DNA of 62,598 bases, the filler included, from Bipalium vagum (taxonomy: Eukaryota), in the NCBI GenBank assembly GCA_037834085.1. It is 3 parts of 3 records of this genome, joined end to end, with 100 filler letters (N's around TTAATTAATTAA, not from the genome) between each part and the next. Parts side by side here need not be neighbours in the genome. Positions count along the whole stretch, not along the records: positions 15,992 to 46,211 come from JBBMKC010002155.1; 2 more parts are not named here. The stretch is one strand, 5' to 3'. Below are positions 6,382-38,499 of this stretch, piece after piece (position 1 is the stretch's first letter; each line of letters opens with the position of its first letter). Position numbers and translations under genes: made by a program. A model generated the notes under the pieces. The model had not been told where the DNA came from. It ran no database searches and was given only the letters and a program-made list of their open reading frames with translations.

Positions 6382-7455
6382 TTAAAACAAACGTACTACC
6401 TTTTCGGATAAGGTCATGAAGTTCCGGCAAATAACGAATTGTTGTTGCCCATTCAAACAAAGAATTTGTCCTTCAATCAGTCCCAGTAAATCGAACCGTA
6501 TTTCCCCTATTTTTTGCAATTTATTCCCCTTTTTCGTTTCATATTGTATCAAATTGAACATTAAAACAAGGTTGTCGTTGCATGCATTGAATATTTGCTT
6601 TTCATTAATGTCAATTGAAAAAATTTCATCGAAATTTATAACCTCTCCCAAGCATGATTGAATGTTGGTTTGGTTGTTATAGATCAATTTGGAATTTTGA
6701 ACATACAATTCCATTTGCAGCTGATAACATTTCTTTTTCGATTGCACAATGTCAGTTATTTTTATCACCACCAGTTCCAACACCTTTTCCTTTTCCAACT
6801 GAGAAAGCATGAAATACAGTTTTCCTTGACTCTCTGATTTCGTCAAAACCAACTGATTTAAGTGTTCCGTCGACTGTCCGAGACCATGGGTTAATTCCGG
6901 ACAAGCTAATCTGCACGTTTCAAAAAGTGACATACTGGCTCTTCGTTCTTTTCTTTCTTCACTCCAATCCAGACTTCCGTCATCGGACAAAATCTTCAAT
7001 TCATCACTATGTGAAAAAACTATGGAACTGAATCTTCTTTTACTGTTCATCAGTGACATTTTGTCCAGAACAGAATCGGAAGCGTCCCTCCCAGTTTCGT
7101 CACAGCTTGGCATTGTAGTGGAATCACAGGTATCGTCAAATGTTATCGCTATCGATGGAACTTCGTTTTTATCTTCTGAATAAATTCCAATGGTTTCCAG
7201 TTTGTTAAGTTTGTTTATTTGTGTTGCTCCATAACCATTTATTTTACAAGTCTGGGGGCAAGTTAAGACTGTATTTACAGATCCAAAAGTACCATTTCCA
7301 ATGAATTCTTCATTTTTACGACCATCTCTTTCTTCGGAATGGCTCTTTTTTCTTTTTCGATAAATTGGAATCAACCAAATCAACCCAAAAATAACCAGAA
7401 CCCCTAAGACCACAGTGACCACAAACAAAGTGATTATTTTCGAATAAACTTCCAT
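6382..7455 (-). CDS. Synaptotagmin-like protein: N-terminal TM helix, linker and one C2 domain (probably a large coding exon)
   Basis: 363 aa open frame. ATG at 7455 follows a splice acceptor (tttccctttgttag, 7467-7468). Hydrophobic helix IITLFVVTVVLGVLVIFGLIWLIPIY is followed by RKRKK. C2 pattern GKLYFML...LELVVIKITDI...INFDEIFSIDI...LVLMFNL...KIGEIRFDL. Possible donors at 6399 or 6396; downstream exons not found. Confidence 0.75.
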   Translation of the reverse strand: MEVYSKIITLFVVTVVLGVLVIFGLIWLIPIYRKRKKSHSEERDGRKNEEFIGNGTFGSVNTVLTCPQTCKINGYGATQINKLNKLETIGIYSEDKNEVPSIAITFDDTCDSTTMPSCDETGRDASDSVLDKMSLMNSKRRFSSIVFSHSDELKILSDDGSLDWSEERKERRASMSLFETCRLACPELTHGLGQSTEHLNQLVLTKSESQGKLYFMLSQLEKEKVLELVVIKITDIVQSKKKCYQLQMELYVQNSKLIYNNQTNIQSCLGEVINFDEIFSIDINEKQIFNACNDNLVLMFNLIQYETKKGNKLQKIGEIRFDLLGLIEGQILCLNGQQQFVICRNFMTLSEKVVRLF

Positions 7456-8699
7456 GACCCAGATATCTAACAAAGGGAAAATATAAAAATAATTAAAAAT
7501 AAACAGAAAATATAATAAATCCTTGACAAATATTTATTGATTGTTTTAATTAATAAACATATTTCACAATATCGATATTCAATCAGAACTTTAAATAATC
7601 ATTATTTTCCAAATTATTTTTTTGGAATATATTTTTTTGGAATATATTTTTTTTCATTGAATACCTGAAAAAGAATGCATTATAATCTGAGAGCATTATC
7701 ACTCAGAACTCACATAAAATATCTGAACTCTCCATGCATTAAAAAACGGAAAGATTATTGAAAAGAAATGAGAATAATTTTCCCGCTTTTTAAGAGAATT
7801 TAACTGATCTTTTTCCTATATAATCCCTCGCTCTCTTTATCTTTCCTCGTTTTTATTGACGATGATGAGCTGAGAATAATATTTCTTTTGTTTCCCCCCT
7901 GTTTTCTTAAATATTTAAAATTAGTTCCAACTCATTGACGGTGAATGAAGAACCATGATGTTTTTTGTTGATTCTACGGCATTGGGTTTCTGTTTTATCT
8001 ATTATTTGTATTGCTTTAATGGTCCCGATATATTTTTCCTTTACAATAGATATAACATTAATTATTCATTTGGTCTCGAATATAATTTCTTCGACTTCTG
8101 AAAAGACTTCTTAAATCAGTCTTTACTTTGAAATAGTACATATCTTCTTTCGGTCCAGTAAGTAATGTTTATTAGATTGTGATGTTCAGAACGTAATGGT
8201 GTTTTTTGAAGTCAACAAAGATTTATTTCTTATAAACAATTAATCACACATGTATTCAGTATTACTTTGAAAACACAGTCACCACTCCGCCAACTTTTTG
8301 ACAAATGTTTATGCTGTTCTAAAAGAATCTGATTCAATATGAATTATTAAGCCGTGTACTAAAGGTCAAGAAATTTTCTTTACTAATGTTTTAAAATGAA
8401 CTTTGGCATTTTACTCTGTTCTCTGTGTTACTACTGCACATCAGCGAAATAATTTTTAAGACTTCTGCAGTACTACATTTTTTTCTAAGCTCATATATCA
8501 CGATTTACGTCAAATCTTTCTCATTTCCATTCTGAAACAATGCATAAATTATTATTAAACTTTTTTTTATTGTGCTGTCAAAAAACAAAATTGATGAGTT
8601 TAAATTGATATTTTCTTTTCACCTAAAATCGATTAGTTTTCTTAAACAAATTAATATTTGAGTATATGAAGACTGAAACAAGTTTGTTTAACAAAATAT

Positions 8700-15891: not shown

Positions 15892-15992
15892 NNNNNNNNN
15901 NNNNNNNNNNNNNNNNNNNNNNNNNNNNNNNNNNNTTAATTAATTAANNNNNNNNNNNNNNNNNNNNNNNNNNNNNNNNNNNNNNNNNNNNT

Positions 15993-16640
15993 TATCTCCA
16001 ATATGATATTTTGGTTTTGAGGATAATTGAGAAATGGAAGAAGTTTTATCAGTTGGATCATTCTTTAACTTTTCAGAATTAGCAAGAGGCTCAGTCAACT
16101 TCTTTGGACTTTTAGATGCTTCTGTTGATGTTATTCCAAGTGAAATGTGAATTTTATTATTATAAAAATTAATTAAGTTTGGTAAAAGATTTAACCATTT
16201 TCTGTTTTATTGTTCTGTAAATTTTTTAACATTAAATTTTTTAGAGTTTTATTAAATCTTTCTATTACAACTGCTTTTCCTTCATTCTCTGTTCAGTAAA
16301 TTTCAATCTAATTATCATCACAAAGATCTTCAAATGTTTTATTATAAAATTCTGTTCCTTTATCAACCAAAAGTTTTTCAGGGACCCTATTTAAATCTTC
16401 AAATATTTAATCAGATGCATCTGTAATTGATTGACCTATTTTATTTTTTAAAAGAGCAGCAAAAGCAAAACGAGTATATAAATCAATAACTGTTAGAATT
16501 ATTTTATAATCTTTTTCTCCAGGAACAAATGTAAGATCAGCAGACCAAATATCGTCTTTGTTATTAACTTTAACTTTTAAAATTTTTTTAGGTTTTCTAA
16601 ATTCTTTATGAAGTTTATTTGCAAGTATTTTTGATTTTTC
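15993..16640 (-). pseudogene. Polinton/Maverick-type retroviral-like integrase (disrupted)
   Basis: Minus translation: ILANKLHKEFRKP...KDDIWSADLTF...YKIILTVIDLYTRFAFAALLKNK...PEKLLVDKGTEFYN...KAVVIERFNKTLK...WLNLLPNLINFYNNKIHISLG. This is a D,D,E integrase in the Polinton style, with internal stops. Confidence 0.85.
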
Positions 16641-16679
16641 AGGAGTAAGAATTTTTGTTTTTGCATAGAGTTTTCATTT

Positions 16680-17240
16680 GCGAGAGTCTTTGAAGATCTT
16701 TCTAATCCTAATCCTAAAGCGAACTTGCTCTTCATTATTAATTTTATAATTGCTCTTTCAAGTTTTTCTCTTGAAGTTGGATTTTGAATATTGTTCATTT
16801 CATGAATCATTTCTACATCTGCAACACGGGTATCTTTTAAATCTGTTGACATATATTTCTTTCATTGCTGCTTGATCAACTCGATTTACTGTAATTGAAC
16901 CAGGTTTTGGAATTGGTAGAATTGATAAATCTTGATTTTCATTATAATTATTTATTATTTCATTATAGTTTTTAAAACGTTTGTCAACATGAGTTCCAGG
17001 TCCTGTAAAATTTGTTTTATTTAAAGGATTTAAAGATTTTAATGGTAATTCACCTGGGTATTTTCCTGTTGTAAATTTGTTAAGGAATTTATTATTACTT
17101 AAAGCTGATTGAATATCTCCTCCTGTTTTTATAAAAAAAGATGAAAATCTTTCTTGAATGTTTTGAATATTTAGATTTTTATTTTTAGTTGTTGATAAAA
17201 TTTTTTCAGTCGTTGTTTTATTTTTTTTTGTTCTATTTTT
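16680..17240 (-). pseudogene. Parvovirus-VP1-like phospholipase A2 (PLA2X-type) domain of a Polinton/adintovirus
   Basis: NFTGPGTHVDKR...VNRVDQAAMK, frameshift, ...TRVADVEMIHEM...KLERAIIKLIMKSKFALGLG, directly upstream of the integrase. The catalytic HD is lost at the frameshift (~16855). Confidence 0.8.
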
Positions 17241-18360
17241 AAAACTGCAAACGGTGACCTTTATTCTTAACATATACCATTTTGACACATGTTACATGAA
17301 ACAGTTGATTATACATGTTCTTTAATATAGATCCGGCAAGAATCATATATTTTGTTGCATGAGTTATTAAAAGAACAAAGTTCTGCCTGTGTGTGCCCAG
17401 AAACCGAATCATTAACGTACTGGCATACGCTTTCACTATTAACTTTATTGGGTAAATATGTTGTTGTTGGTTTGTCGATGCATCCCACAAGAATGTTCAT
17501 AAATCTGAAAATTGTTAATATCGCTTTTCTCAACAATAGGGAAAATCTTTTTTACATCAATTAGATCCTTTGCATGATTTTTTGCCTTAGATCCTCATTG
17601 TAACACTTAGGAGCAGCATGAAGAATCAGATGGACAATCATTTCCAAGGACTTTAAATAGATTGACAACTACTGGATGATTCAGTTTATATAGCGGAATA
17701 TATGCCGCCATAAATGCTTTAGCTACTTCTGTTGTAAAGCTACATTTTGATATTGTCAAAAATGATTGAGTAGAACATGCTGCCTGCTTATTATTGTGCT
17801 TCCCAGATTGACGGTGGCTCTCTACAAAATGACGCTTTTCATGTTTTACAATGGCGTCGCACAATTTTCAGTACAGTTGATTTGTAGGGGTAGTAATAAA
17901 TTCTGTCGGGTAATCAATAACGATCCTGTTGACTTTGCATGATTGACTCGCTCCTATCTTTGGCATTGATGGAAATTACAATTACTTATAATTAAAATTA
18001 CTCACAAACTAAAATTAAACTTACTTCTATAAAACTTAAATTTGATTTAATTTATTATCTAATATTATTTAAACATTTTTAACCGTATTTTAACTTTATA
18101 ATTAGGGCAATTTATTTTAAACCTAAAAAAAAATTTTTAACTTTATTATTAACTTTGTTATTAAAAATTTTAACCGTATTTTAACTTTATAGCCTAAAAA
18201 TTTTATTTTTAAAATAACCATAAATTTAACCTATATTTTAACCTTATAAATCACGATAGAGGGACCTTCGATGACCAAAAATGGTGTACATGTGCTTTGT
18301 AGGCCAAGAGAATCTATAGGACACATTTTAACTTTATTAACTTTTACTTGCCCTAATTAT
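17240..18360 (-). mobile_element. Truncated hAT-like transposon with CGGBP1-like transposase N-terminus
   Basis: MPKIGASQ...LCDAIVKHEKRHFVESHRQSGKH (zinc finger)...AFMAAYIPLYKLNHP...NFVLLITHATKYMILAGSILKNMYNQLFHVTCV. Subterminal repeats (tttaaccgtattttaacttt) at 18075-18240. Confidence 0.7.
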
Positions 18361-19633
18361 AACTAGCTTCCAAATTTTTAATGTATATATTTAGTAATTT
18401 TATTATTTTTGGGGTTATTTACGTGTCTAAATTATTAATAGTTATATGTGGCTATTTTAGCTCACAATATTTCTGATTATAATTATTTAATTATAATTTA
18501 ACTATTAGTTTATTATTTTACTTAATATTTTGATTCAAAAATGTTTATTTTTTTTAATTAAACATTTATCAAAATATACAATATTTAAAGAATATATACT
18601 TAAATAAATAAAGACAATGGGTCTAACGAGACCTTTTCGTACAAATGATATACACAAAGTAAGACTGTTGTTAATCATCAGTGACATCAGTTAATTTAAT
18701 CTTTTCCCACTGGATTCTGGGACTGCTTTGTAGCTCCTTTAGGCTCAACGGCAAATATTAAATTTCTTGTTATGGAGGTTAAATGAGTTGCGTAAGGAGT
18801 TTCACTGAATTTAATGTGGATCCAAACATTATTATTACAAGTCAGATCGTTTGGAGATCTCTACAACTCTTATAGATGTGCCTATGGTCATTCTAACATA
18901 TATTTTGTTTAGACTTAGTGAAAAGTTATCCTGAACACATTCATTAATGAAAAGATATATTTCACAACTGGTTTTCCATCAGCCAGTAAAGGAGTCAGAA
19001 GCTTATCATCAACTTTGAAATCATGTCTATATAATAATTAAACTATTAAAATAATCAATATGAAAATTTCATTTTTCTAAAAATAAAATTATGGACTTGA
19101 AAGCCTCCATATCTTATTAATAAAAAAGATATTGAATTTTCTAAAAAATTCTTTTGATTGAACTTCTTTCTTAACATTATCAAATATTTTTCTAAAATTA
19201 AAAATTCTAACCAGTAATCTTATATAATAATTAATTATTAATAAAGAATGAATTACCATAATGATTAAGTTTAAAATAAGTTTTTTTAATATTAATAATT
19301 AATAAATGGAATTTTCAAATAAGCCTAAGGGTTTTATAGGATTTAGGTATTACAAATTGTAGTAGAATTTTCAATGTAGAGTTTTTAATTTTCATTAAAA
19401 ATTCTATAATTTTTACATTTAATCATTTTTCATGTTCGTTTTAATTAATCAGTAAACATGTATTTTTTTGTTATTATTTTAAGAAATTTTCTAATTTACA
19501 GTAAGAGATTTTAAATATAAAAAAGTTTCAAGAAAAATATTCTTTCTATTATTTTTTTATAAAACTATACCATAGAAATTATTAGAAAGTCAGTGGAGCA
19601 AATATTTTTCAGCAAATTTTAAAGAAAAATATA

Positions 19634-20173
19634 ATGTCTAATTATTCAAAAATTAGTGTTCTTGAAAAAGTCAACCAGATGTTTGTCTGCTCAATCTGTT
19701 GTGATTTTAAGCTAGTTAACAATTCAAAGCTTTTTGCTACATCAAATCCATCCCTTTTTCTCGAACATCAGCGGTGTTGTCATCCATCAATTAGCGAATT
19801 CGAATGCATTTATTGTTGCAGTCATTTACCAGCCGTCGATTTGATGCAACATATCCAGAACCACTTTTCCAATTCAGTAGCGTCTGACAGTAGATATGTT
19901 TGTGCTCATTGCTCTAATCGAGTTAAAATCAACATTACTAATTGCATGGAACACTTGGAAACAGAACATCCAAACGTTGAATTAGAATGTCCTCATTGCA
20001 AGGCATCGTTTACAGATCGATTAGATCTCTTAAGTCATCTAAGGAATAATATATTATATGTATTTCATTGCTTGTACGAGAATTGCTTTGTAAAGAGTCA
20101 CAACATAATGGGTATATTGGCCCATTTGAAACGTGTCCATTTTGGATCCAGGTGTCTAAAGGTGGAATGTATG
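19634..20173 (+). CDS. Zinc-finger gene exon 1 (4-5 C2H2-type fingers)
   Basis: ATG at 19634; CIYC..HIQNH, CAHC..HLETEH, CPHC..H, CLYENC..HLKRVH. Phase-0 donor ATG|gtaata at 20173/20174. Confidence 0.85.
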
Positions 20174-20529
20174 GTAATACTTTGCTATAATATTTGTATA
20201 TTTTTTATATTTAGATTTATTTTTGTTACATTAAATAAATGATCCATAGATAATTAACGAAAAAATATATTTCTCGCTACATCTTCAAATTCAAATTCAT
20301 GAAAAATATAATCAAAATTTTTAAATTGATATTGTAAGTGAAAAATAAATCAATGAAAACAGAGAAATATTTGAAAAACTTTTACAACTCGGCTTTAAAA
20401 TAATTAATATAAATAGTATAATATATCTAAAAATATTTTACATGTCAAAAATATATCGATCTTTACATTCAAATATTGAAAATCAATATATTTTATTAAT
20501 TTTTAAAAATGATTGCGCAATTTTATTAT

Positions 20530-21330
20530 TATTTAATTGCACAACAGTCTCATTTTGGAATTGTATTTAAGGACAACAAACGTTTTTTTCAAGTACCCAA
20601 AAATCGATGTTGATAAAATTCCAATTCTCACTTTAAGTCTAAATTTACCATTCGATCAACTCTTTCTTTTTTTGTTGATCGATAAGCTCTGGTACCCGTG
20701 TAAATTAGTGCGATGGCAGCTTCATTGAATGAAAATTTTATCTATCAGACCTGAAATTCTGAAAGCTTTGTCATAAAAATATTGTTGCTATCTTCCAATC
20801 TCGTTCTACCTTTATGAGCGGTCGTGCAACAATGAAATATATCAGATTGAATGAAGTTCAATGATGCAGACAGAGTTTTGAGTTGGTGGCTGCTAATAGC
20901 AGAGTTGAAGATAAGTGATAAAGAATGCATTGGTCACATCATTTGTCTTATTGAACCCCTCTCTCTCTCTCTGGTCTTCAATATCAGTACTGGATAGAAC
21001 ACAATCAATAAACCACCATCTTGAATATCGGACAATGTGATTTCTTGTGGTGAGACCCCACATACACTTCAGAATTTTTTTTTTCTAATAAGCCAGGCAC
21101 AATTTTCGTGAGATAAAGAATCTTTTCTTTACGTTAATCTTATGAATTATTTTTCAGTTTGTGCGATGGTTCCAGGGATTAAACTTTAAGAACGACAGTC
21201 TTTCTTTTAAATGTTTCCTTTCGAAAAAAATTTGAAGTTTTTAGTCAGTCAATGAAGAACATCTTATTTCTCCTGGACTTTGTTTTAAGAAATGAAGAAA
21301 AATTCTCTTTTCTCCACGACTTTGGGACTT
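20530..21330 (-). mobile_element. Unclassified decayed coding relic (probable TE) in intron 1 of the zinc-finger gene
   Basis: Higher-complexity sequence with short broken ORFs and no usable splice phases; family not recognised. Confidence 0.25.
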
Positions 21331-22096
21331 ATCATTGATAATAAATGAATTAATAATTAATTAATTAAAATTGTAATAATAACTAAAAGGCAATGAATGA
21401 CCCTTAAAACATTACCAGATAACCAACTTTTTATCTATTGTCGAGTTGCTTTTATGTTTTGCAGTCGATTGTGCACATTTCTATACTTCAGAAATTCTCT
21501 ATTATACCAAGTGATCCGTGACTGATACCATATATTTATTTCTACACCCTTTAGATGAAGTTAAAGACACAACCTACACTCAATCACTTGAGTTTCGGTG
21601 TTCTTTTTATTTATATGCTCTGGTTTTGACAATGAATTAGAATGTAGATATTAACAATAAAATGAGAGAACAGTAGATTCATTTTATATTGCTTATAATT
21701 TGTTTACAATGCCGAGATCCGGAGACAAATGTTAATAACTTTGAATTATTGACCATTGATACTGTTTAACTTTAAAAATATCTTTCTTCTTATGATTCTT
21801 GTGGAAAGATTTTCTTAATCTCTGTTTCAAAGATAATTAGTCGCTGATTATTATTTCTTTCTTTAATTAAGGAAAATCTTATTATTCTTTATTATTATTA
21901 TTTTTAATTTTTCTTGGAGACATTTTAAAATAAAGATTTTTTGTAACATTAAATTGTAAAAAATAGCTGATCCATTTGTTACATATCGAAAAATTAATTA
22001 TAAGATGGATTTTTATTTTTTATATTTTAATTTATAAATATAATTTATATATTCGATTTATTATAAATCAACGTCAATTTCGTTCTCTTTTTGTAG

Positions 22097-22768
22097 TTCA
22101 TTTGTATGGAGCGCATTTCTAGAAAACCACCGTGCAATTGCACAGAAAATTTAAATTTATCATCACAGACTCCTCTTAAAATTAACAGTCCTGCAAGAGA
22201 TGATTGTCAACTTATCGCCCTTCCTTATTCTACGCGAGTCCTCAGTAAATTATCATCGGGATTCGATGAAAGACTCCGAGAAGATCTGATCAGTAAAATG
22301 AATCAGTATTCAAAATTTAAAGTTCGTCTTGAAATTGTCGATGGTCAGAAACAATTTGTCTGCTCGACCTGTCAGTACCGATCTGTTCATTCATTGGCGG
22401 ATGTACGTAAGCATATCCTCGGATGTCATTGTAGTGTGAGCACCAGTTATACACGCCTATGTTTGCGAGCCAGTCGTTTGGATACAAACACATTCTCTCT
22501 GTTTTCCGACAGGAAATTGATATCATTCGCCAACGAGAAATTAAAAAGAGCCGAATCCGGAACCGCCTGGGACGGAAATGGTGACACGAGCACCATGCAA
22601 TTATTGGATGACAGCGAACCTGAACAAGAGACGAATATTGATTCTATTACTAGACCAATAAAAAGAGGATCTTTGACGAGTGGGACAGCTGGGTCAATAA
22701 AACGAGCTCGTCTCACACATAGGCAAAGCCATTCTGTCAAAATGAGGTCTGACTCTCCAATACCTGAG
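22097..22768 (+). CDS. Zinc-finger gene exon 2 (first extended zinc-finger module plus basic linker)
   Basis: Acceptor ctttttgtag|TTC is in frame with the 22106 ORF; donor CCTGAG|gtaaat; 672 nt, phase 0-0; contains FVCSTC...DVRKHILGCH. Confidence 0.85.
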
Positions 22769-23749
22769 GTAAATAATCGCATTTATTATTATTTTGTTAT
22801 CTAAAATGTGCAATTTTTATTTTTTAAATAATAGATAATCTACTTGTTAATTTTCTGATCATAATAATTTTTACCTATTTTTAAAATATTAATATTCTGT
22901 AAGTTATTGATAATCGATAACTAAGATATTTAGTTATCGATTTAATATTTTTCATTTTTCATTACTTATTGATCTATTAAATTCTTGAGAAATATTTTTA
23001 TCATAGGATATAATTTATTGCATCACAATTGATTTTATTTTAAATGTCCTAAAATGTTACGTTTTAATCTCGAAATATTCAAAGGATTAATTGAAAAATA
23101 TATTATAATATATAATGTTCAGATTATAAATGAATTCCTAATGAATGTTTTTTTTATTTCGTATCACTTTTATATCAATCTCTTCTGTTCTTGTAAAATT
23201 GACAAAGAAAAAGAAAGATTTGCTTCCTTATTAATAGAGGAATTTTACTGGCCAGTAGAAATGATTATAATTTAATCCCATTGGTTGAAAATATGTTTTT
23301 CCGTATTTCTGAAAAAGTCTTAATTTCCCCTTAAAATATTTTAAAGTAAACTGACTTAGAAAGGATTTAAAACTAATCTTGTCATTTCTTTTTCGTTTAA
23401 GGACTTCCTTTTTTCTTTTACAACTTCAATGACCAGAAATGTTAGTAATTCATTCATTTTTCAAGAGATTTTAAACTTCCAAATTGTGTGTTATTTTTTC
23501 ATTTCTTCATGATTTATTGGCTAGGAGCCAATTTTCGAAATTGAAAACCTTGAACTCATTTTTAAACAATTCACCTATTTAATAATAATGAATAACAAAA
23601 ATATATTTTTATTCATAAACAGGGTATTTGCATAAATTAATGTCCAATGATCTAAAGCTTGAACTCTTTTCTCACAAATTCATAGTTTCGTTTTAATAAA
23701 ATTTAAATTGAAACTGTCGACCACTGTAAACGGTCTTTACTTGTTTCAG

Positions 23750-24691
23750 GTCGGTCAACCACTGGAACGAAACGAAAAGATCGATCGTGTCATTCATTTA
23801 AATTATTCATGGCACGTTTTGGAAAAGCTCGTTGCTGGGCAATGTCCGGAACGTTATCTGCCGATATTGAGTCGAAAAATGGACGTATATGCTCTTCACA
23901 GCATTCTTTTAACTCGGCGAAACGGAAAACGTTATTTTCTGTGTTCTCATTGTCCCAATTGTTCACCACATGGCATGAATGATATACGTAAGCACATTCT
24001 TGGTGTTCACGCTCGTCTGCCAGAACGATTCAAAGCAGCTGCTATGTACTGTTCAAGAATGAATAGAGACAATTATGGTCTGCTGTCAGATGATGAATTG
24101 TTGAAAAAAAATCAAGACATGGTACGTTGGCGAACTGTACCCCCGACTGGTGGTAGCGGTACCAGTGATGATAACTTGATGGATCCTCTTCCACCTTTGC
24201 AACCTACTTCAATGACATATGAAGATTCAACATCTCCATTACATCAAAACAATCAACACAAGTCTCACAACGTATTCCTTTCTGGTTCCACAGGTGACAA
24301 CGGTGACATCAGTCCATTCTCGTTTGTAGCCATGCCAGAAGACCCAGTCATTCAATTTACATCGTCAAAGCTCAGCAATCACAACGGTAATTTTTCGACC
24401 AAGAATACCACCGACTCGAATGAGTCTTCTCCGAAAATCGATGACAATTCTTCAGTGACATCTGTGATTAACAATAATTTCAACCACAGTATTAATTTTA
24501 ATAATACTCAGCAACAGCAACAACTTAGCAACGGTCGCAGCAGACGGTCTCTAGCATTGAAATCCAGGAGTAGTAACCACCACCACCCCCACAACAACAA
24601 CAATAATAGTAATAATAATAGCAATGCTAACTGCAACGGCATCGGCATCGGCATCGGTATCGGCAACAGCTGCAAAAACGAGAGCATCTAG
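23750..24691 (+). CDS. Zinc-finger gene exon 3 (second extended module plus N/Q/H/S-rich tail; stop TAG)
   Basis: Acceptor ttgtttcag|GTC in frame; FLCSHC...DIRKHILGVH; low-complexity C-terminus. The joined CDS is 717 aa. Confidence 0.85.
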   Translation, partial: VGQPLERNEKIDRVIHLNYSWHVLEKLVAGQCPERYLPILSRKMDVYALHSILLTRRNGKRYFLCSHCPNCSPHGMNDIRKHILGVHARLPERFKAAAMYCSRMNRDNYGLLSDDELLKKNQDMVRWRTVPPTGGSGTSDDNLMDPLPPLQPTSMTYEDSTSPLHQNNQHKSHNVFLSGSTGDNGDISPFSFVAMPEDPVIQFTSSKLSNHNGNFSTKNTTDSNESSPKIDDNSSVTSVINNNFNHSINFNNTQQQQQLSNGRSRRSLALKSRSSNHHHPHNNNNNSNNNSNANCNGIGIGIGIGNSCKNESI

Positions 24692-25999: not shown

Positions 26000-26236
26000 T
26001 TATTTCTTCTTTCCTTTACCGCTTTTCTTTCCCTTTCCACTTTTCTTTCCTTTCTTTCCTTTTTTACCTTTTCTCTTTTTTCCATAAGGACCAAGACCGC
26101 TGCGAGCACAAACTGTTCTCCACCAGCACTGGATTTTCAGTGATGATGCTACTTCTAACGCTTCTTTCTCCTTAATCCTCAGCTGCTTTTCTTTCTCAAT
26201 TCTGTCATTGATGACAACATTTTCGTATTTTATATA
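26000..26236 (-). CDS. IQCG: IQCG/DRC9 exon 6 (IQ motif and Lys/Gly tail)
   Basis: Acceptor tttcag|TAT; KIQCWWRTVCARSGLGPYGKKRKGKKGKKGKK matches the DRC9 C-terminus; TAA at 26000. Confidence 0.9.
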   Translation of the reverse strand, partial: YIKYENVVINDRIEKEKQLRIKEKEALEVASSLKIQCWWRTVCARSGLGPYGKKRKGKKGKKGKKSGKGKKSGKGKKK

Positions 26237-26349
26237 CTGAAAATAAAGAAAATTATTAATCATCCAGACAATGTTTTATTGTATTTTCCATACATTAAAA
26301 AATAGAAATGGAAAAGAAATGTCATGTTCTCTTTACAAAAGAAACTAAC

Positions 26350-26800
26350 AGTTTGTGTCAGGTCTTTTAATTTTGCCAGATCTTTGTTTTTGCTGTTATT
26401 AAGGACACTTAGATTTTTTTTCAAAGCTTCGGTATCCACATCATATTTTTGTGACCAGTATTTTGTTTTACTGTTTATCTTGTCAAGGTAATCACGCAGC
26501 CAACTCTCACTCTCATTGTGAACTCGTTGTTCGTTATCTATCATACGATCTAAGCAACTCAACTCATTTTGTAAATTTTGCTCATTTTGCTGACACAATT
26601 TTGCAGTCTGTGCCACTTGGGCTATACATCTTGCTCGGGTGTACTTGAGCTCCATACTTGTTTTGGCCTTGGTTTCCTGAAGTTGGTCCTTTAGGTGAGC
26701 AATCATTTCGTTACGGCTTTGAATTTCTTCAAGTTCTAGATTTTTCACTTCCTCAATCTCTTTTTTCAACTCTTTAATTCGTTTGCGACTGTTCTCTTCA
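26350..26800 (-). CDS. IQCG: IQCG/DRC9 exon 5 (coiled coil)
   Basis: tttag|T GAA...CAA ACT|gttagt; RNEMIAHLKDQLQETKAKTSMELKY...EQRVHNESESWL...YWSQKYDVD. Confidence 0.9.
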
Positions 26801-26849
26801 CTAAACAGTTAAAATAAATAATTTTTTTCTAATTCATTGTTTCTGTTAC

Positions 26850-29164: not shown

Positions 29165-30631
29165 AGAGTAGGGGGCACTTTCGTCTTAGGGGTATTCGAT
29201 ATAGGGGGCGCATTCGGTGTAAGGGGCACCTTGAAAAATCAAATCAAAAAAATGCCCCTTTTTTATGGTTTTCAAATTTTAAAGACACAAACTTAAACTA
29301 AAGAAAATTCACGGCGAAATGAAAGATTCTGATCAAGATGCAGCGAGAAAATATGCTGAGGAGTTTAATACTGTTACTAGAGATTATGAATTAATGAATA
29401 TATTCAACGCAGATGAAACAGCTCTTTTTTATAAAGCCTTGCCAGCTAAGAGCTATGTATTAAAATGCGAAAAAATTCAAGGTAAAAAGAGAAACAAAGA
29501 ACGATTGACAGTATTGTTTTGTTGTTCGAAACGGAGAGAAATTGCTACCTTTAGTGATCGGGACAAGTAAATATCCACGAGCTCTTAAAAATATTGATTT
29601 GAAATCTTTAGGAGTCATATATGAGTCTACTAAAAAGGCTTGGATGACGCGTGATTTATTTTCTAGGTGGTTAGTCAAAGTCAAAGAAAATTTTAAAAAA
29701 GAAAAATTGTACTATTAATTGACAATGCTCCGAATCATATTATGACTACACTTTCTAATATAAAAATTTTATTTATGCCAAAGAATACCATAAGCATATT
29801 GCAGCCTTGCGATCAGGGCATAATAAAAACGTACAAAACTTTTTACAGAAGCTTTCAAATTGAAGAATTAGTTACATCTGTTCTTATAGCGGGTAAATTT
29901 CAAAAAATTACACAATTAAATGCAATTGAATGGACCATTTTCTCTTGGAGCAAAGTCTCAGAAGAAGTTATTATAAATTTTTTTAGACACAGTAAATTAA
30001 TAAAACACAATTCATTGCAGAAAGAGAAAAAATTGGAAGATGAAAAGATCATAAGACAAGACATTGAGAAAACGAACGAGAATTAATTCAGAGTAATCTC
30101 GAAATTTTGAACAATAACAATTATGATTCATGTTTTATAAACAATTTCCTTGAAATCGACGATGGAATCATAGAGAAACATGAAAATATTTTTGATTTTA
30201 CTATAGTGGACAATAGCGTCAGTGATATTGTTGAGGAAGAATTAATTGAGAATGAAGTGGAGGATGCAGTAGAAAATTCGATGAAAATTTAAACTGATGA
30301 AGAAGTTGAAAAGTCGCCTGAAATACAGTTTTCAATAGCTGAGAATTGATTGGAATTGGAATGAAAGTTATATGAATCAATCAGCTTTATTCAATCAAAT
30401 ATTTCGATGACTTGTCCAGAGTCCGTACAAGAATTTTACGAATTCAGAAGAAAGTTTTATTCCAATTTTAATAAATGAAAGTACAAAAGAAAATAACTGA
30501 TTAGATGTGTGTTGAATAAAATAATTAATAAATATTTTTGATTTATCTTTCCCTAATGGGCACATTCGGTGTAAGGGACACTTCGAGAAATTTCAAAATC
30601 AAAAGAGCCGCCTATATGAGAGTTTGCTGTA
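29165..30631 (+). mobile_element. pogo/Tigger (DDE_1) transposon relic inside IQCG intron 3
   Basis: IFNADETALFYKALP, KERLTVLFCC, KKAWMTRDLF, LLIDNAPNH, MPKNTISILQPCDQGII. Subterminal repeat cattcggtgtaaggg near both ends; right end gagagtttgctg|ta. Confidence 0.85.
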
Positions 30632-31999: not shown

Positions 32000-33300
32000 T
32001 CAGAGCGTCATTTTTAGTGTTTTTGTTAGAGGGTAAGATGAAGAGCACCTTAAGAAGCACCCCTTAAATTTATGGAACTCAGTATTAGGCATATTTATCT
32101 TAGCTGGTTTATGATCTATACATAATCTTTTGTGATTTTCATGAGCTTTTAAAGTTGTTTGGTAATTCAAACCTCTCTTAAGGAATATTATCTCTTCATT
32201 TGAACCTAAATTATATCCTATTTCCCCACACATGTCTTTGAAAATTTTTAATTAAAACATAATAGTATTTATTATTCAATGGAATACCAGCTTTGTTGGT
32301 TAGTTTGAAAAGAATAACTACTTTTTTGGATAGTTCAAAAGGAATATCAACTTTTTTGGATAATAATAGATCAATAGACTCTATTTAATTTCTCATTTAA
32401 ATCTGAACAGTATATTAAATCTGTTTTATAGTTTTCTCTTACATTTCGACTCCCTATCAATTCATATACATTTTTTTTTCAAATTTTTATATCATTAACT
32501 GAAACCTATTTATTTCCTGATGTTGCCTTATCTAATTCGTTAAATAATTCAGTATCATAAGTATATCTATTTGGATCACTAGCATTTTTGATTAATGGAA
32601 TTAAATAAGCTAATTCACAGTATTGGACACATTTATTATGTGTTTTCATATTAACAAAACAATTAATTCTAAAAGGTAATTCTATAAAAGAACCTCCTTT
32701 CAATGAATTTATTTTTACCACTTTAACTTTAATAGAATAATATTTATCAACTACCCATCGTAATCCCTTTACTTTATCTATTTCTCTATCCAAAAATTCT
32801 TGAAAATTAGAAATACCTCCTATCATGTCATCCTCTGTTATATTTCTATTTTAATTTATAATCTGATCATACTCAATCTTTTTTGTAATGAATTCATTAT
32901 CTCTAGTATTATTTATCATATCATTAACTATAAATTTATATTTTATTTTTTAAAAATTATTTAACATGCTTTGTAAATAATTCATTATAGTATCTTTATT
33001 ATTTATTAATATTCTATTATAGTAATGTTTGGTGAAGAAATATCACGAAACGTTTTTTCATCTATTTTAAATTGGGAAGTATTGTCACCTTTAGATAAAT
33101 CCCCATGTTGTGAGGGCAAAAAAGTTGTATCATACATAAGTATGTCTCCTTTAGGTGAATCTTCCCTCACTTAAGTTTCTTGAACTGGAGTTAGTTGTAT
33201 ATTCAATAAATGTTTCTTGGATTTTTTATGAGCACCTAAAGCTTGTGAATTTTTAAAATCTTGATTACAAATTTTGAATTTATATTCGTTTATTTTATTT
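32000..33300 (-). pseudogene. Polinton/Maverick protein-primed DNA polymerase B, N-terminal region (decayed)
   Basis: N-terminal zinc finger (KICNQDFKNSQALGAHKKSKKH), then GLRWVVDK...INSLKGGSFIELPF...VNMKTHNKCVQYCELAYL and RGLNYQTTLKAHENHKRLC..KPAKINMP..KFK. These match the GSSYIxLP/NxxNxDNKCF and CLN..HxxxC..MP blocks of Polinton pPolB. Confidence 0.75.
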
Positions 33301-33899
33301 TTTATATATAAATATTTCTCCAGCTGGGAAAAAGTTAAAATATTACATTATCAAATTAACATAATACCAAAATTATAATAAATAAATATTTAAAAATTAT
33401 TTATTAATAAAATGGATGAAAGAAAAAATTTAGAGTGTTTATCTAATGAGGACTCAAAATTCAAAATAAATTTCCACAAAATAAATATTATGTTATATTT
33501 TTGGGTGCTACAAAGAGTTCTTTAAATAAAAAAGATTTGATAAGCTATCAAAAAGATTTATCATGGTTAATAAATAACTGTACAATAAAACTAAACATGA
33601 AAATACAAATGTACATTTAAATGGTCTAAAAACTAATAACACTAATACTAAAAGTACTAAAACTATTAACACTAGCACTAGAAGTACTAATTTTGAAATT
33701 ATTAAACAAAAATATCCAACATTTTTTAAAGAAGGCGGTAGCACGCAAGTCACACCCGCCTTCATGTCTTCATATTCTTCCTCCATTGGCTCTGTGAGGT
33801 TTAATATCGTAAATACTTTTTTGGTTTCTTCGATTAATAAAGTTGCCTTTTGTACCAAGCTTTGAGTAAGGGGTTTTTTTTAATGATTTTTCGTTAACT

Positions 33900-34400
33900 T
33901 GTTCCTGCCATGGAGTACAAATTAAGTTGCAGATTGCTACCATTTGCCAACAGTCTCTTTCGTTTCGCAATTTTAATTCTGTCCACATTGGTTAATCCAA
34001 TTTTCTCGCTATAACTAAAGGGGTTTGTTGGGGATACTAAGTTCTTATTTTTTATTGCGTAGCTAATTCTCTGATGTCCTGTAAGATTGATATTGGAATT
34101 TTGCATATATTCATAACATCATATATATTATATCCTGCTATCACTTTGTCCTGCATCAGGGTTCTTAGGTAATACTTGAAATGAAATTCATCCATCCCAT
34201 GTTCTAATTGGTCTTCAGTTATCCCTGTTTGCGGAACATTAATGGTTAGTACTCTTTTCTGGGTTCTACTATTGTGTTTAACAATATTTTGCCTTTTAGA
34301 TCCATTAAAGTTGCCGATAATATCTCTTGAGTTTGATCATGACCATCTTTCATGGTAGTTATGGCCAACATGCGTATATCTTCGGGGTTTACTTCACTGC
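33900..34400 (-). pseudogene. REX4/ISG20-like DEDDh exonuclease fold, catalytically degenerate
   Basis: IRMLAITTM...ILSATLMDLKGKILLNTIVEP/...QTGITEDQLEHG...LMQDKVIAGYNIYDVM...DIRELA aligns by eye to VALDCEM...ARVSIVN..G.VLYD.YV.P...SGIT...L.GKILVGH.L.ND. Confidence 0.7.
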
Positions 34401-35499
34401 TTTTAAAATTTATAGATTCTTTATTTTCCAGTTGTTTCTTGTACTGGTGGAATTCCTCGGGCATTGTTTCTATTTGAGATGGGATTTCTGTAAAGATAGC
34501 TTCTACAGCTATTACTGTGTCATTGTTTAGAACTTCGAAACATATGCTATTCTGACGTCCTTTTAGGTTAAAAGCCTTGATTGATTTTTCTTGCTCCACT
34601 TGAATGGGGCTAGTTCCAGCTATATGTAATAGAACTGGGTTTTTTATTATATGTGTGTATATGTTTTCGGTTAAGCGTCCTTTGTTGTTTGTTGCGCTTC
34701 TGATTAGGGGTTTTCCATTTAAAGTTAGACCTGGTTTGCTCATGTGGAAAATCCATAGGCTTCTATTTTGTATTTCATGCGTCTTAAATTGATTGGGAAT
34801 ATCTTTTGGCCTTGGATAATAAAGGAAATTCTTATTGTTATTTTTCAATTTGTAGTTAATCTTTTCTGCCATCATTTTTTAAATTTTGGTATCTTCTTGG
34901 TACTTCTCTAGTATGGTATCTGCGGGTTGATTTTGAAGATATTTCGATATTTGGATTGTAGTCATTGTTGGTTTTTGAGATGGTTGAATTGCGTTGTTTT
35001 GAATTCGAATTGTGTTGAGTTTGGATTGCGTAGCTTGTATTGTATTGATTTGATTGACTGCTGGAGAATTTTCTGAGTTAGCGGTAATTATGATTAAAAC
35101 TGAAAATATAAAATTAAAATTGGTTTTATATAAAAAACGTTTTTAATTAATTGGTTGCGCATGTTTTCATAAACCTGCACAACCTTTAGTAATTGTCATT
35201 TTGATCTTTGATATAATTGTCTTTTATTGGCTATTTTTACAATTAATATTATTATTGCTATTATGACAATTATTATTATTAATATTATTATTAAAATTCT
35301 TAAACTTGTCTTTACAATTTTGCCTCTTAAGTTACTTACAGTTATTTCCAGTATCTTTAGTAATTCTTCCTTTTCTGTATTTTGCTCGTTAACATATCGT
35401 ACGAATAATGGTTCTAATTCTTCTTTTTCTTTCTTACAATGTTTCTACATTTTACTGATGATTATCACTGAATTATGTAATGGCGAATAGTACTGATTT

Positions 35500-35897
35500 T
35501 TCTGTTCTAGCTAATAGTTGAAATTGTGATTACTTTATTGCTTCTTGTATTAGTATTTGTAAAGCAATAGTATTTTTCCATTCGATGGCATGGTCTATTG
35601 CTGATTTACCTACTTTATCTCTTTTTTTATTGCGCATCCTACTGATAATAATGCTATTATAAATTCTTCAGTAATTTTTCCGGCTGTTACTAACATGATA
35701 GCTGTATTTCCGTACATGTTTTCCTCATTTAATGACCATAAGCAAGTATTTTTTATTATTTTCATTATTTCCAAAGCTTGTTCCTCCTTATTTTTCAATA
35801 TTGCATTATTTAAAGGAGTATCTCCATATTTATCTTTCAAAGTAAATATTTCCGGTAACTGCCATGATATCTGATTAAATACCTCTTCTTTTGTCAT
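35500..35897 (-). pseudogene. Ankyrin repeats within the retroelement cargo
   Basis: DKYGDTPLNNAILKNKEEQALEIM...LNEENMYGNTAIMLVT...IIALLSVGC, followed by GKSAIDHA. Confidence 0.8.
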
Positions 35898-36129
35898 TCC
35901 TAATGCGAAGTTGTGCCCAATTTTAGCTATTTTTCATAATACCATCATAATTTCTTCTTTTTCATTACTGTTTGTATCCGTTTCAATTTCTTCATCTATT
36001 GATGTTCCTTCGCTATTACTCATTGAAAACAGCTCCTCGACTCCTTGTGAGATTTCATTTCTTAGAGGAACTATCGTTAAACTTACTTGCTCAGTTGGTA
36101 TGTTTTCATTTGGCTTTGGTATTACTGTT

Positions 36130-36465
36130 CCGAAGAATAATTGATTAGTATTGAAATTTATCATTAAATTGGGTATTTTGATAACAAAGCTATTCCAATT
36201 ATGCACTCATTTGGCGGATTCTCCATAATTTTTACTTCATGTCTGATGTTTTTTCCCTGCAATGTAAATTCGATTTCCACTGTTCCAATTAATTCCATTC
36301 TTCCTTTATTGATTCCTTCGATAATTATTGGAGTATAATGGATTCTTTGCTATTCTGCTATTGATAGCATACTAATATTAAATAGTATGCTATCCGGTGT
36401 TCCGGTGTCTCTTAAGGCGACTTGTAATCGACCGTTTATTGTTAAAGTTATCATAGGACGAGTTT
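36130..36465 (-). pseudogene. Second retropepsin-like aspartic protease domain downstream of integrase
   Basis: A frame missed by the ORF track reads RPMITLTINGRLQVALRDTGTPDS...IEGINKGRMELIGTVEIEFTL...NECIIGIALLSKY/NLMINFNTNQLFF; DTG at 36409-36401; one stop and one frameshift. Confidence 0.75.
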
Positions 36466-36821
36466 CGACTGGTTCTTGATTTCTTTAATATTAATTCTGC
36501 CAAAACTAGATATACCATTACTATAAAATATATTAATAGCAGTCCTATTATACTTCCTATTCTCATCCCCGTTATTAGTTCTTTTAATCCTTTTATTATT
36601 TCTTCAGTTTTCGTATTGTTTTTCATTGCTCTTCCTTCATCGCATATAGCTAAAAATAACAGTAATTGAAATAAATATGGTATTCTTTGAGCTTTATGTG
36701 GTCTTATATTGTATCTTGGTTGATTGTCCATATTTTCTTTTCCGGATTTATTTTTGTCTTGTTGTTCTGTATTTATTATATCTTCTGGTGTTATTGTCTC
36801 AGAGTCTTTTGTCATTAACTT

Positions 36822-37900
36822 CTATAACTTGCATCTATTTGCATGAACCATAATTGGTTCTTTGTATGGTTTCTTTGGGTCTAATAGACTTAGATTTGTA
36901 TTTAACACCTTTTGAACTTTATATGGACCTTTAAAAGTTCTTGTTAGTTTTCCTGATTGTCCTTTTTTAATTACGGGTGATTCCAGCATGACTAGATCTC
37001 CTTCTATTGGTAATTCTCCTTTGGCTTGTTTGTTGTACTGCTCCTTCGTTATTTCTTGGTTATATTTTATAGATAATCCTGCCTTTTTCCAGGCTTCTTG
37101 CAATCTTTCTCTCATTATTAATAAATAGTCCTCTTCATCAGCATAATGTGACGTTGGCGTATAAAATATCAGATCTACAGACATATTTGTATTCCTTAAA
37201 TACATTAGATAAAATAGCATGTTTCTTGATGTACAGCATTTCTATAGGCAAATAAGCATGATGCTATATGTACGTCCCAATCTCTCTGGGATGAATTTAC
37301 GTATGATGCTAGCATATCTTTCGACTAACCCATCAGTTTGTGAATGGTATGGTGAAGTATTTAGTTTCATGATGCCAAAATAATCATTTATACTTTTAAA
37401 TAATTCACTCATAAATTTGGTTCCTCTATCAGTTAGCATTTTCCTAGGTACGCCATATCGATACACTTTTTGTTCTACAAATATTTTTACAATTGTACTT
37501 GCTTTATGGTTTGGTATTGCGAAAGCTTCTGGCCATTTAGTGAAATAGTCACAAACTACCAGAATATACATGTACATGTTTCCTTCTTTTGTTTCCGGAC
37601 ATGGTCCTGTTATATCCATTGCTATTGTTTCCATGGGTGCTAATGGTACAGGCATTGGTTTAAATGGTAATTTTATTTTGCTATCTGTATTTTTTCTGGT
37701 TTGACATATTTCACATGTTTCACACCATTTTTGACATCCTGTGTAATACTAGACCAATAATATTTTTGTCGAATACGTGATAGTGTTTTTCTATTACACA
37801 AATGTCCCCTTAATGTTCCATCGTGATATTCTAGTAAAATGACCTTTCTAAGTTCTCTTGGTACTACGGGAACTGCATCCAAAAAATCTCTGTATTGCAA
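36822..37900 (-). pseudogene. Ty3/gypsy integrase (HHCC remnant, DDE core, GPY/F C-terminal motif)
   Basis: YHDGTLRGH; IAMDITGP...VCDYFTKW...YGVPRKMLTDRGTKF...TSPYHSQTDGLVER; KLTRTFKGPYKV. Confidence 0.93.
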
Positions 37901-38099
37901 TACTCCCTTTATTTCTTCATAATTTTCCACTGATTTATTCTTTTCTTTTAATTTTTCACGGATACTTTTTAACTCTTTATCTGCATTTTGCATCAATCTA
38001 AATTGTTCGTGATCATCTAAATATTGAATTACGGTGAATAAATTTATTCCTGAATATAGTGTATCTACTTCTGCAATTGGTGCACTTGATAATGCATCT

Positions 38100-38490
38100 G
38101 CGTTAGCAATACCTCTTCCTTTCATATATTGAATATTGGTATCATATTATTGTAATTTTAAGGACCATCTTATTAATTTTGATGCCGTATCCCTATGTTT
38201 TAGTAGATACTGTAATGGATTAAGATCTATTAGTACAATTATTTTTCTTCCCCATATATATGTTCGGAACTTTGATACTGCGTATACTATTGCTAGACAT
38301 TCTAATTCGATTGTAGCGTAATGTTTTTCATGATTTTTCAACCCTCTCCTAGAATATGCTACCACATAATCTTTGCTTTCTTAGTCCTGTTTTCCTAATA
38401 CCGCTCCTATGGCTACTCCGCTAGCATCTGTCATTAGATAAAATATTTTATTTAAGTCTGGGTATCTCAGAATGGGTGAAGATGTTAACC
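38100..38490 (-). pseudogene. Ty3/gypsy RNase H
   Basis: LTSSPILRYPD...LMTDASGVAIGAVLG...VAYSRRGL...YATIELECLAIVYAV...RWSLKLQ...NADALS. Confidence 0.93.
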
Positions 38491-38499
38491 TATTTCTTA

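Follow-up and report, generated by a model that had tools for sequence, protein, structure and literature searches.

Does the reading frame of a gypsy retrotransposon in Bipalium vagum run on past its integrase, and if so, what does it encode there? The window, by which we mean the whole stretch of 62,598 nucleotides analysed here (from assembly GCA_037834085.1), contains a decayed Ty3/gypsy element for which an earlier note had proposed a single polyprotein, extended by about 3 kb into a multi-domain, membrane-punctuated cargo (Table 1). We are highly confident that the locus is a dead copy, rearranged at its 5' end, of a GAG-ENV-POL lineage of the Metaviridae that is related to Burro. The fuller account, which adds to this identity a cargo slot behind the integrase, a membrane-tethered protease-ankyrin module, a separate dead-nuclease ORF3 and roles for these parts, is in our judgement probable as a whole.

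Table 1. Features of the locus, in positions of the window.
Feature	Position	Strand	Evidence or remark
Diverged inverted-repeat block around env piece	39614..42462	none	identity 66-72%
Detached env C-terminal piece (Monjiviricetes/gB-type fusion glycoprotein, TM region)	41115..41650	minus	Pfam PF24664 E=2e-16
Polypurine-tract-like run adjoining RT start	39495..39509	minus	
Decayed Ty3/gypsy element	39465-33770	minus	
Reverse transcriptase (RT)	38532..39465	minus	Pfam RVT_1 E=9e-27; frame changes near 39400, 39095
RNase H	38147..38530	minus	Pfam RT_RNaseH E=1e-32; two in-frame stops
Integrase (IN; H2C2 finger, core, GPY/SH3-like C-terminus)	36825..38146	minus	Pfam
Linker with YxLR-type motif (RYNIR)	36684..36821	minus	motif marks integrase tail in clade, 15/17 tails
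Internal signal-peptide-like segment (signal 1)	36627..36683	minus	11-aa hydropathy 2.7
TM1	36486..36560	minus	19-aa hydropathy 2.79
Post-integrase retropepsin	36176..36460	minus	Pfam RVP E=7e-5, above cut-off; DTG motif kept; one stop
Acidic linker	35949..36059	minus	translation
Ankyrin repeats, three clear and a fourth likely	35445..35933	minus	frame change and stops break region
Charged helix, TM2, short basic tail	35196..35444	minus	TM2 ~35235-35297, 19-aa hydropathy 4.23
ORF3 N-terminal Q/S/T/N-rich region	34880..35142	minus	aligns with P0043 N-terminus
Splice-acceptor-like T-tract-CAG in ORF3 N-terminal region	35100	minus	
ORF3 cupin-like double-stranded beta-helix domain	34489..34878	minus	AF2 pLDDT 79.9
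ORF3 ISG20/REX4-like DEDDh fold	33900..34380	minus	frame change near 34255, three stops

The pol region has the gypsy order RT-RNase H-integrase, both by its Pfam domains (for the integrase H2C2, E=2e-14; rve, E=8e-12; SH3_Tf2-1, E=0.003) and by the trees. Its sister in the pol tree (support 100/100) is P0076, an intact gag-env-pol polyprotein of 3181 aa, to which the window copy is 60-72% identical in the RT and 61% in the integrase; the pair lies inside a 17-row clade (100/99, FastTree concurring). The trees were built on 53, later 26, hand-chosen members of 164 collected proteins, and P0003 and P0006 are counted as core members by identity only. The search for relatives covered proteins of 1024-3259 aa, the largest found having 3181 aa. 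No direct repeat pair flanks the element in the window as LTRs would, and Rfam gave zero matches across 32000-44000. The window is AT-rich and also holds a DRC9 gene (E=8e-29), which marks the host as ciliated and led to the rejection of a nematode host; a host zinc finger, compared by Atlas, pointed to no taxon.

Upstream of pol, on the same strand though detached, stands a piece of a class III-type env (56% and 49% identical to the env of P0076), among inverted-repeat pairs (39614-39865 vs 42165-42462; 40286-40542 vs 41651-41910). The polypurine-tract-like run sits upstream of the RT in this copy, instead of flanking the element, and tblastn found zero matches in the window to gag, to the canonical protease (PR) or to the PR-RT spacer. 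This spacer of 175-183 aa, lost from the window, is conserved in 10 of 15 measurable relatives and may be dUTPase-like, as in Burro.

The kinship with Burro that the earlier note had suggested is supported indirectly, through the architecture of P0076. Its Gag has four CCHC-type motifs (CCHC E=1e-10), followed by a weak UBX/ubiquitin-like match (E=0.006), a non-significant Bcl-xL-like segment (E=1.2, BH1/BH2 aligned) and, in frame ahead of PR, a Monjiviricetes-type env (E=1e-90). The same order, gag, ubiquitin-like and BCL2-like segments and in-frame env before PR, is given for Burro in the available part of a review (PMC6431247). By eye, the P0076 env has many motifs in common with six elements of Schmidtea that span 14.5-18 kb, and with Smed_errantivirus_4 above all, as far as the accessible part of their source goes. 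Ankyrin repeats occur in both Burro/GYPSM1 and the window, a likeness in domain content. There are also differences: Burro, in the available text, has an ORF of ~4900 aa and exceeds 30 kb with LTRs, against the 3181 aa of P0076, in which no BIR, MATH or Smc was seen, and the account of it in PMC6431247 mentions neither signal/TM modules behind the integrase nor protease duplication nor an ORF with cupin and DEDDh domains. Nor does that part of the review bear out the earlier note's statement that Burro has DEDD domains, as it gives DEDD only for rotifer Terminons. The accessible parts of PMC8532177, PMC13238120 and PMC11410931 hold nothing on domain order.

Behind the integrase the minus strand is coding-like for about 3 kb, just as had been claimed: stop-free runs of at least 80 aa cover 77% of 33770-36822, compared with a mean of 3% (maximum 26%) in 500 block shuffles, none of which equalled the longest run in the cargo (210 aa). 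The GC content by codon position, which is higher at position 1, and the abundance of A are also like those of pol. The reading frame is not open in this copy, where a manual count put the internal stops of the cargo at about ten and its frame changes at five. Two observations count against our account, namely the in-frame stop directly after the integrase (36822-36824) and the stop density, which is ~10 per 1000 codons in the cargo vs 2 to 3 per 860 in pol. Because of that stop and the many breaks, continuity of pol into the cargo is not demonstrable in the window copy.

An in-frame cargo is nevertheless supported, since intact relatives carry such tails in one ORF. Seventeen of the 18 core clade proteins have an in-frame tail of 206-1369 aa after the integrase (the remaining one stops within it), with a TM helix in 14 of the 17 tails, a retropepsin in seven and ankyrin in two; env lies in the same ORF in 7/18. 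Such tails occur in three of five proteins of the next-nearest group, and none longer than 150 aa was found among 23 hand-picked outside elements. P0064 and P0072, both intact, read IN-PR-PR-ANK-(PR)-signal-ectodomain-TM in a single ORF. These alignments show that the integrase C-terminus of the lineage became an in-frame cargo slot, mostly for a predicted signal-ectodomain-TM module and variably for extra retropepsins and ankyrin. Retropepsins have been duplicated more than once in the clade. Against our account, P0076 has only the signal-ectodomain-TM module after the integrase, and no relative has the exact domain order of the window. A GTDB scan with P0071 gave DNA context in 0 of 21 stretches, and one with the pol alignment found 31 loci without a match to cargo, env or ORF3 in any of them (the P0001 contig ends too early for ORF3).

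The tail in the window opens with a signal peptide and a TM, continues with the retropepsin and the acidic linker, and closes with ankyrin and another TM; this much of the order first read there holds. Signal peptides were judged from hydropathy alone; the relatives have a hydrophobic segment at a similar place after the linker, and a putative luminal piece of ~22 aa with an N-x-T sequon precedes TM1. The retropepsin is 40% identical to the PR of P0076 (E=2e-13) and groups with this canonical pre-RT protease (UFBoot 94), not with other post-integrase proteases. The ankyrin region is weak in Pfam (E=0.04-0.15) and 48-49% identical to the post-integrase ankyrins of P0064 and P0072; that of P0064, itself Pfam-significant, is matched at 48% (E=5e-31), and by a second window piece at 50% (E=4e-5). 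All 19 PDB matches are DARPins, MIB1, TRPA1 or SKOR, which we take to be ankyrin-bearing. The ankyrin identity equals that of pol (48%) for the same proteins, and a single clade of the window element, P0064 and P0072 is rejected by the tree test (AU p=1.3e-6). The stop at 35196-35198 is likely the end of the polyprotein.

The last part of the cargo, which extends to ~33770 and is shorter than its homologs, is very likely a separate ORF3 encoding a dead nuclease. The domain of about 150 aa that had been called unknown is present, and its fold now reads as a double-stranded beta-helix (cupin/AlkB-like). Nearly all of its top 50 VIA rows are cupin/2OG-oxygenase folds (Z 7.8-10), the best being ALKBH6 (Z 10.0, rmsd 3.7, 123 aligned), and it also matches viral replicase and cupin entries (best E=7e-5). 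The metal ligands HxD...H or HxH...H are absent from the ORF3 alignment as read by eye, which has one invariant His followed by x-I/L/A/N/V and no second conserved His. A PD-(D/E)XK nuclease, hinted at by Atlas for the 210-aa ORF3 piece (scores up to 0.87), was rejected, the AF2 model being a beta-helix barrel. The DEDDh fold, too, is there: the model of the homolog P0045, on which the comparison was made in place of the window sequence, fits ISG20 with Z 18.1 (rmsd 2.3, 155 aligned) and gives a Foldseek E of 2e-8, and a profile of the region matches ISG20L2 (E=0.002). Pfam has no match to this fold or to any part of the ORF3 family. The catalytic residues are nearly all missing, with the ExoI D in 0/6 relatives, the ExoI E in 1/6, the ExoII D in 0/6 and the ExoIII H and D in 0/3. 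No member examined has more than one of the five residues D-E-D-D and H, and the window ORF3 may, by eye, retain one ExoIII Asp. This census suggests that the fold is probably catalytically dead across the family.

A search over 1.84e9 representatives gave seven matches, six of them true relatives (153-643 aa); P0047, spurious through Ig repeats (E=2e-6), was left out of the counts. All six stand alone, with no pol domains, and among the 164 collected proteins the ORF3 profile scores none beyond these six. Three of them (153-309 aa) may be fragments, and these three may have been fused to pol. A word-based search with the 210-aa piece among longer proteins found 0 in 598 candidates, which is weak evidence. 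No DNA context joining any ORF3 homolog to pol was found, which counts against our account. Two relatives end in a peptide resembling polypurine-tract read-through. Only two splice-acceptor-like sites occur within 33770-39400, and as the one other than that in ORF3 sits in signal 1, the ORF3 site may merely mirror T-rich hydrophobic codons.

Could the entire 3 kb, cupin and DEDDh domains included, have formed one polyprotein with pol that uses a second signal peptide to enter the membrane again? The strand and composition are the same, only ~55 nt separate the TM2 stop from ORF3, P0043 likewise opens with an F/I-rich segment, and internal signal peptides are used by relatives. Yet stops close both of the frames that matter at the junction, the supposed second signal has a low 19-aa hydropathy (1.49) and a similar feature in only one of six homologs, an RNA-binding fold in the lumen makes hardly any sense, and the six relatives stand alone, their domains occurring in no pol polyprotein among the 164. 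We consider this quite improbable; the single polyprotein of the earlier note thus survives as far as the in-frame cargo of intact relatives, not through the DEDDh fold. The protease grouping raises another reading, a one-off chimera that was never a working unit: the rearrangement in which gag was lost and env cut off would also have moved the protease of the element to its place behind the integrase, and the ankyrin would derive from a different subfamily. This reading would account for the loss of the canonical protease from the window, fits the clearly rearranged 5' side and agrees with P0076, which lacks PR and ANK after IN. This is unlikely, though less so than the single polyprotein: the parts make up a consistent topology, with signal and TM ahead of a cytosolic PR-ANK and a tail anchor, two intact ORFs also have PR then ANK after the integrase, many clade members have extra proteases, and the window protease is followed by an acidic linker, not by the conserved PR-RT spacer.

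An unrelated insertion or host pseudogene behind the integrase, which the earlier note had named as its refutation, is itself largely refuted, and we give it hardly any credence. Ankyrin and DEDDh folds are common in hosts and Pfam scores in the window are weak or absent, but the top matches of protease and ankyrin lie in retroelement polyproteins of the same clade, the integrase-tail motif and the signal position agree with relatives, and neither insertion boundaries nor a repeat pair surround the cargo.

Under our preferred account, of a cargo slot with a separate ORF3, the internal signal peptide would send a short piece into the ER, where TM1 would stop transfer; the protease and ankyrin would therefore remain cytosolic and membrane-tethered. 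The post-integrase protease, a lineage-specific copy of the element's own and thereby its second, would free a tail-anchored ankyrin protein, most likely binding a host signalling protein as an IkB-like decoy, by analogy with a planarian nidovirus ANK. ORF3, probably expressed from spliced RNA, would most likely bind RNA 3' ends and shield element RNA from exonucleases or piRNA silencing, in the manner of the pseudonucleases Exuperantia, Maelstrom and EXD1. These specific host-modulating roles, drawn by analogy, are tentative, as are the functions in host defence or membrane-associated replication that the earlier note had offered.

Other systems offer partial parallels, cited here from the available parts of their texts. 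The planarian secretory cell nidovirus (PSCNV) likewise has a membrane-punctuated polyprotein with predicted signal-peptidase sites, one product combining a three-repeat ankyrin with a TM as a proposed IkB mimic (PMC6211748); it is an RNA virus and not a retroelement, and is likened by architecture alone, not sequence. Among rotifer LTR elements, in which DEDD ORF3s made from spliced messages are known, Juno/Vesta also have an accessory ORF3 of DEDD fold near their 3' end, as a rule read from a spliced message (PMC5408684). Theirs is an RNase D-like DEDDy that keeps its catalytic residues (PMC5408684), unlike the ISG20/REX4-like DEDDh of the window, apparently dead and joined to a cupin-like barrel. 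GAG-ENV-POL errantiviruses of the HSV/gB type from Platyhelminthes, Nematoda and Bryozoa share the env-before-pol order and the env type (PMC13524379); no discussion of post-integrase cargo was found in the part available, and 'ankyrin', 'exonuclease' and 'Burro' have zero occurrences in the main text.

The kind of element is not new, as cargo-laden gypsy elements with env in frame are known from Burro. A literature search, outside which lay subscription papers including the primary Burro papers, found no description of the following features: the post-integrase in-frame slot as a clade-wide trait (17/18 core proteins) and no oddity; repeated retropepsin duplication, up to three per polyprotein; an ankyrin module conserved like pol on two separate branches; and an ORF3 family that combines two pseudo-enzymes and has intact homologs in nature, open to assay. 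The captured IAP of Burro1 (B-IAP) is reported, in the accessible part of PMC13465017, to protect planarian stem cells, and the cargo modules are for this reason testable candidates for host-modulating cargo. One might speculate, with more doubt than conviction, that a sizeable invertebrate gypsy lineage acts like complex retroviruses, with a second membrane glycoprotein, in addition to env, from the integrase tail, repeatedly duplicated proteases cutting out swappable modules, a conserved ankyrin protein anchored in the membrane as an immune decoy, and a so far undescribed cupin plus dead-ISG20 pseudonuclease that would suppress RNA decay or piRNA silencing.

By three-frame translation and Pfam, the minus strand of the window carries the decayed pol of a gypsy element. 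The ~3 kb after the integrase are far more open than expected by chance (77% in open runs of at least 80 aa, where 500 shuffles averaged 3%), which bears out the coding-like character ascribed to them in the earlier note. This cargo comprises a signal-like segment, a TM helix (TM1), a retropepsin (RVP, E=7e-5), an acidic linker, ankyrin repeats, a second helix (TM2) and two globular domains, largely the order claimed, save for a second signal-like segment. The copy is dead: in its cargo we counted roughly ten in-frame stops and five shifts of frame, and neither paired LTRs nor a gag or canonical protease was found for it. An env fragment 56% identical to the env of P0076, an intact 3181-aa relative, lies 1.7 kb upstream of the RT. 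It is enclosed by a diverged inverted-repeat block. This may represent the 5' half of the element after rearrangement, an LTR that contains inverted repeats, or another, non-autonomous element that carries env. The hairpin and tandem repeat past ORF3, the last cargo part, form a possible element boundary. The host of the window sequence is AT-rich and possesses DRC9, which is compatible with a flatworm. The ORFs beside the decayed integrase look Polinton-like; the 383-aa ORF has an N-terminal hydrophobic stretch and, by eye, a C2-like end, with no Pfam match.

Features located in the window
Feature	Position	Strand	Basis
RT	38532-39465	minus	Pfam and translation
RNase H, then integrase	ending 36825	minus	Pfam and translation
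ORF3	~33770-35142	minus	
Short G+C-rich hairpin just past ORF3 end	33723-33760		
30-nt tandem repeat	33629-33690		
Diverged inverted-repeat block around same-clade env piece; PPT-like run then directly adjoins RT	39495-42462		
Host DRC9/IQCG exons	26003-26808	minus	E=8e-29 to PDB DRC9
Decayed integrase and neighbouring ORFs	15943-17291; 32003-32850	minus	rve E=2.5e-5
DDE_1 transposase remnant	29283-30086	plus	E=1e-18
Host zinc-finger exons, and 383-aa ORF	19586-24691; 6382-7533	plus; minus	

The integrase search gave 42 matches among 90 candidates, 8 of them at 55-64% identity, and a second search with one of these relatives as query (best 120 of 3450, 1024-3259 aa only) revealed, among the matches listed, a clade of long polyproteins. 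In the tree the window element is sister to P0076 (support 100/100), within a clade of 17 rows (100/99). P0076 reads Gag, CCHC knuckles, UBX-like and Bcl-xL-like segments (both weak matches), signal-env-TM, protease, spacer, RT, RNase H, integrase and signal-ectodomain-TM, which is the Burro order given in PMC6431247, section 7, and indirectly supports the proposed Burro-related lineage. By eye, its env also resembles that of six Schmidtea GAG-ENV-POL elements in the PMC13524379 supplement. The feature is real, and the window element probably belongs to a GAG-ENV-POL gypsy lineage related to Burro, its post-integrase cargo being modular. Eukaryotic elements of this clade also occur inside bacterial MAG records under bacterial protein names (loci L001, in JBOFCV010000293.1, and L002, and protein P0071), apparently through contamination; L001 has an ectodomain-TM past its integrase.

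The post-integrase slot is a trait of the clade. An in-frame extension past the integrase, as claimed for the window element, recurs in 17 of the 18 core proteins among the matches listed (206-1369 aa); in the same set, 15 of the 17 tails keep a YxLR-type motif, 14 a TM helix and 7 retropepsins. No tail above 150 aa was found in the 23 outside elements, which we picked. As the window's YxLR-type motif persists 36 residues beyond the stop that follows the integrase, this stop is probably decay. A signal-ectodomain-TM module can lie before pol as well as after it, since the protein P0004 has one, not env, immediately before its canonical protease (residues 45-390). Immunoglobulin domains follow the integrase in P0079 and P0081, and a protein tyrosine phosphatase in P0040, a more distant gypsy.

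A phylogeny of 31 protease domains separates the extra post-integrase copies from the canonical pre-RT group with modest support (56 and 84). The window cargo protease groups with the canonical one of P0076 (UFBoot 94) and therefore represents either an independent duplication or a relocation, both of which fit a copy that has lost its 5' half. Three retropepsin-like domains are present in each of P0053, P0060, P0062 and P0064, and P0064 and P0072 both have a single copy that lacks the DTG motif. The window ankyrin is 48-49% identical to the post-integrase ankyrins of the intact P0064 and P0072, and is as conserved as pol (48% between these elements). Grouping of the three carriers as one clade is rejected (AU p=1.3e-6), implying, on this phylogeny, exchange between branches or repeated loss.

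A single polyprotein running through to the DEDDh fold was not upheld. The ORF3 search, covering 1.84 billion representatives, gave 7 matches, of which 6 are true relatives; the seventh, an Ig protein, was dropped as spurious. All six lack pol domains and match no Pfam family, and among the 164 proteins collected no pol polyprotein is picked up by the profile of the family, which argues that ORF3 is a distinct gene. The C-terminal peptide of 2 of the 6 resembles what we take to be polypurine-tract read-through (pattern also at window 39509), which suggests the 3'-most ORF of LTR elements. Only one homolog shares the 'second signal', which is weak. An acceptor-like tract at 35100 overlaps it, and could be explained by hydrophobic codons, as the sole other such tract falls in signal 1.

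The DEDDh fold itself is confirmed: the AF2 model of the relative P0045 (mean pLDDT 57, DEDDh domain mostly 70-90) matches ISG20 with Z 18.1, and the ORF3 profile matches ISG20L2. The catalytic residues are missing (ExoI D 0/6, ExoI E 1/6, ExoII D 0/6, ExoIII H and D 0/3). Decay of the window copy is ruled out as the cause by their absence across the family, and the loss is therefore ancestral. The domain before the DEDDh fold, labelled unknown, is in the window copy a cupin/AlkB-like barrel (pLDDT 80, Z up to 10), with no metal-ligand motifs in its alignment. This pseudonuclease is apparently undescribed. We found no published description in the literature searched; the two primary Burro papers may already show part of these findings.

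Beyond the demonstrated domain identities, clade placement, slot recurrence and catalytic-residue loss, a mechanism may be proposed, against which it counts that no relative has the exact cargo order, P0076 has neither protease nor ankyrin after the integrase, and ORF3 lies beside pol at 0 of the 31 loci matched by pol alignment. The signal peptide and TM1 would anchor a protease-ankyrin unit at the ER, on its cytosolic side, and the second protease would free a tail-anchored ankyrin protein. This protein may bind a signalling factor of the host, the role suggested for the PSCNV ANK in PMC6211748. ORF3 would probably be expressed by splicing, like rotifer ORF3s (PMC5408684), and could bind RNA ends without cutting, thereby protecting the RNA of the element.
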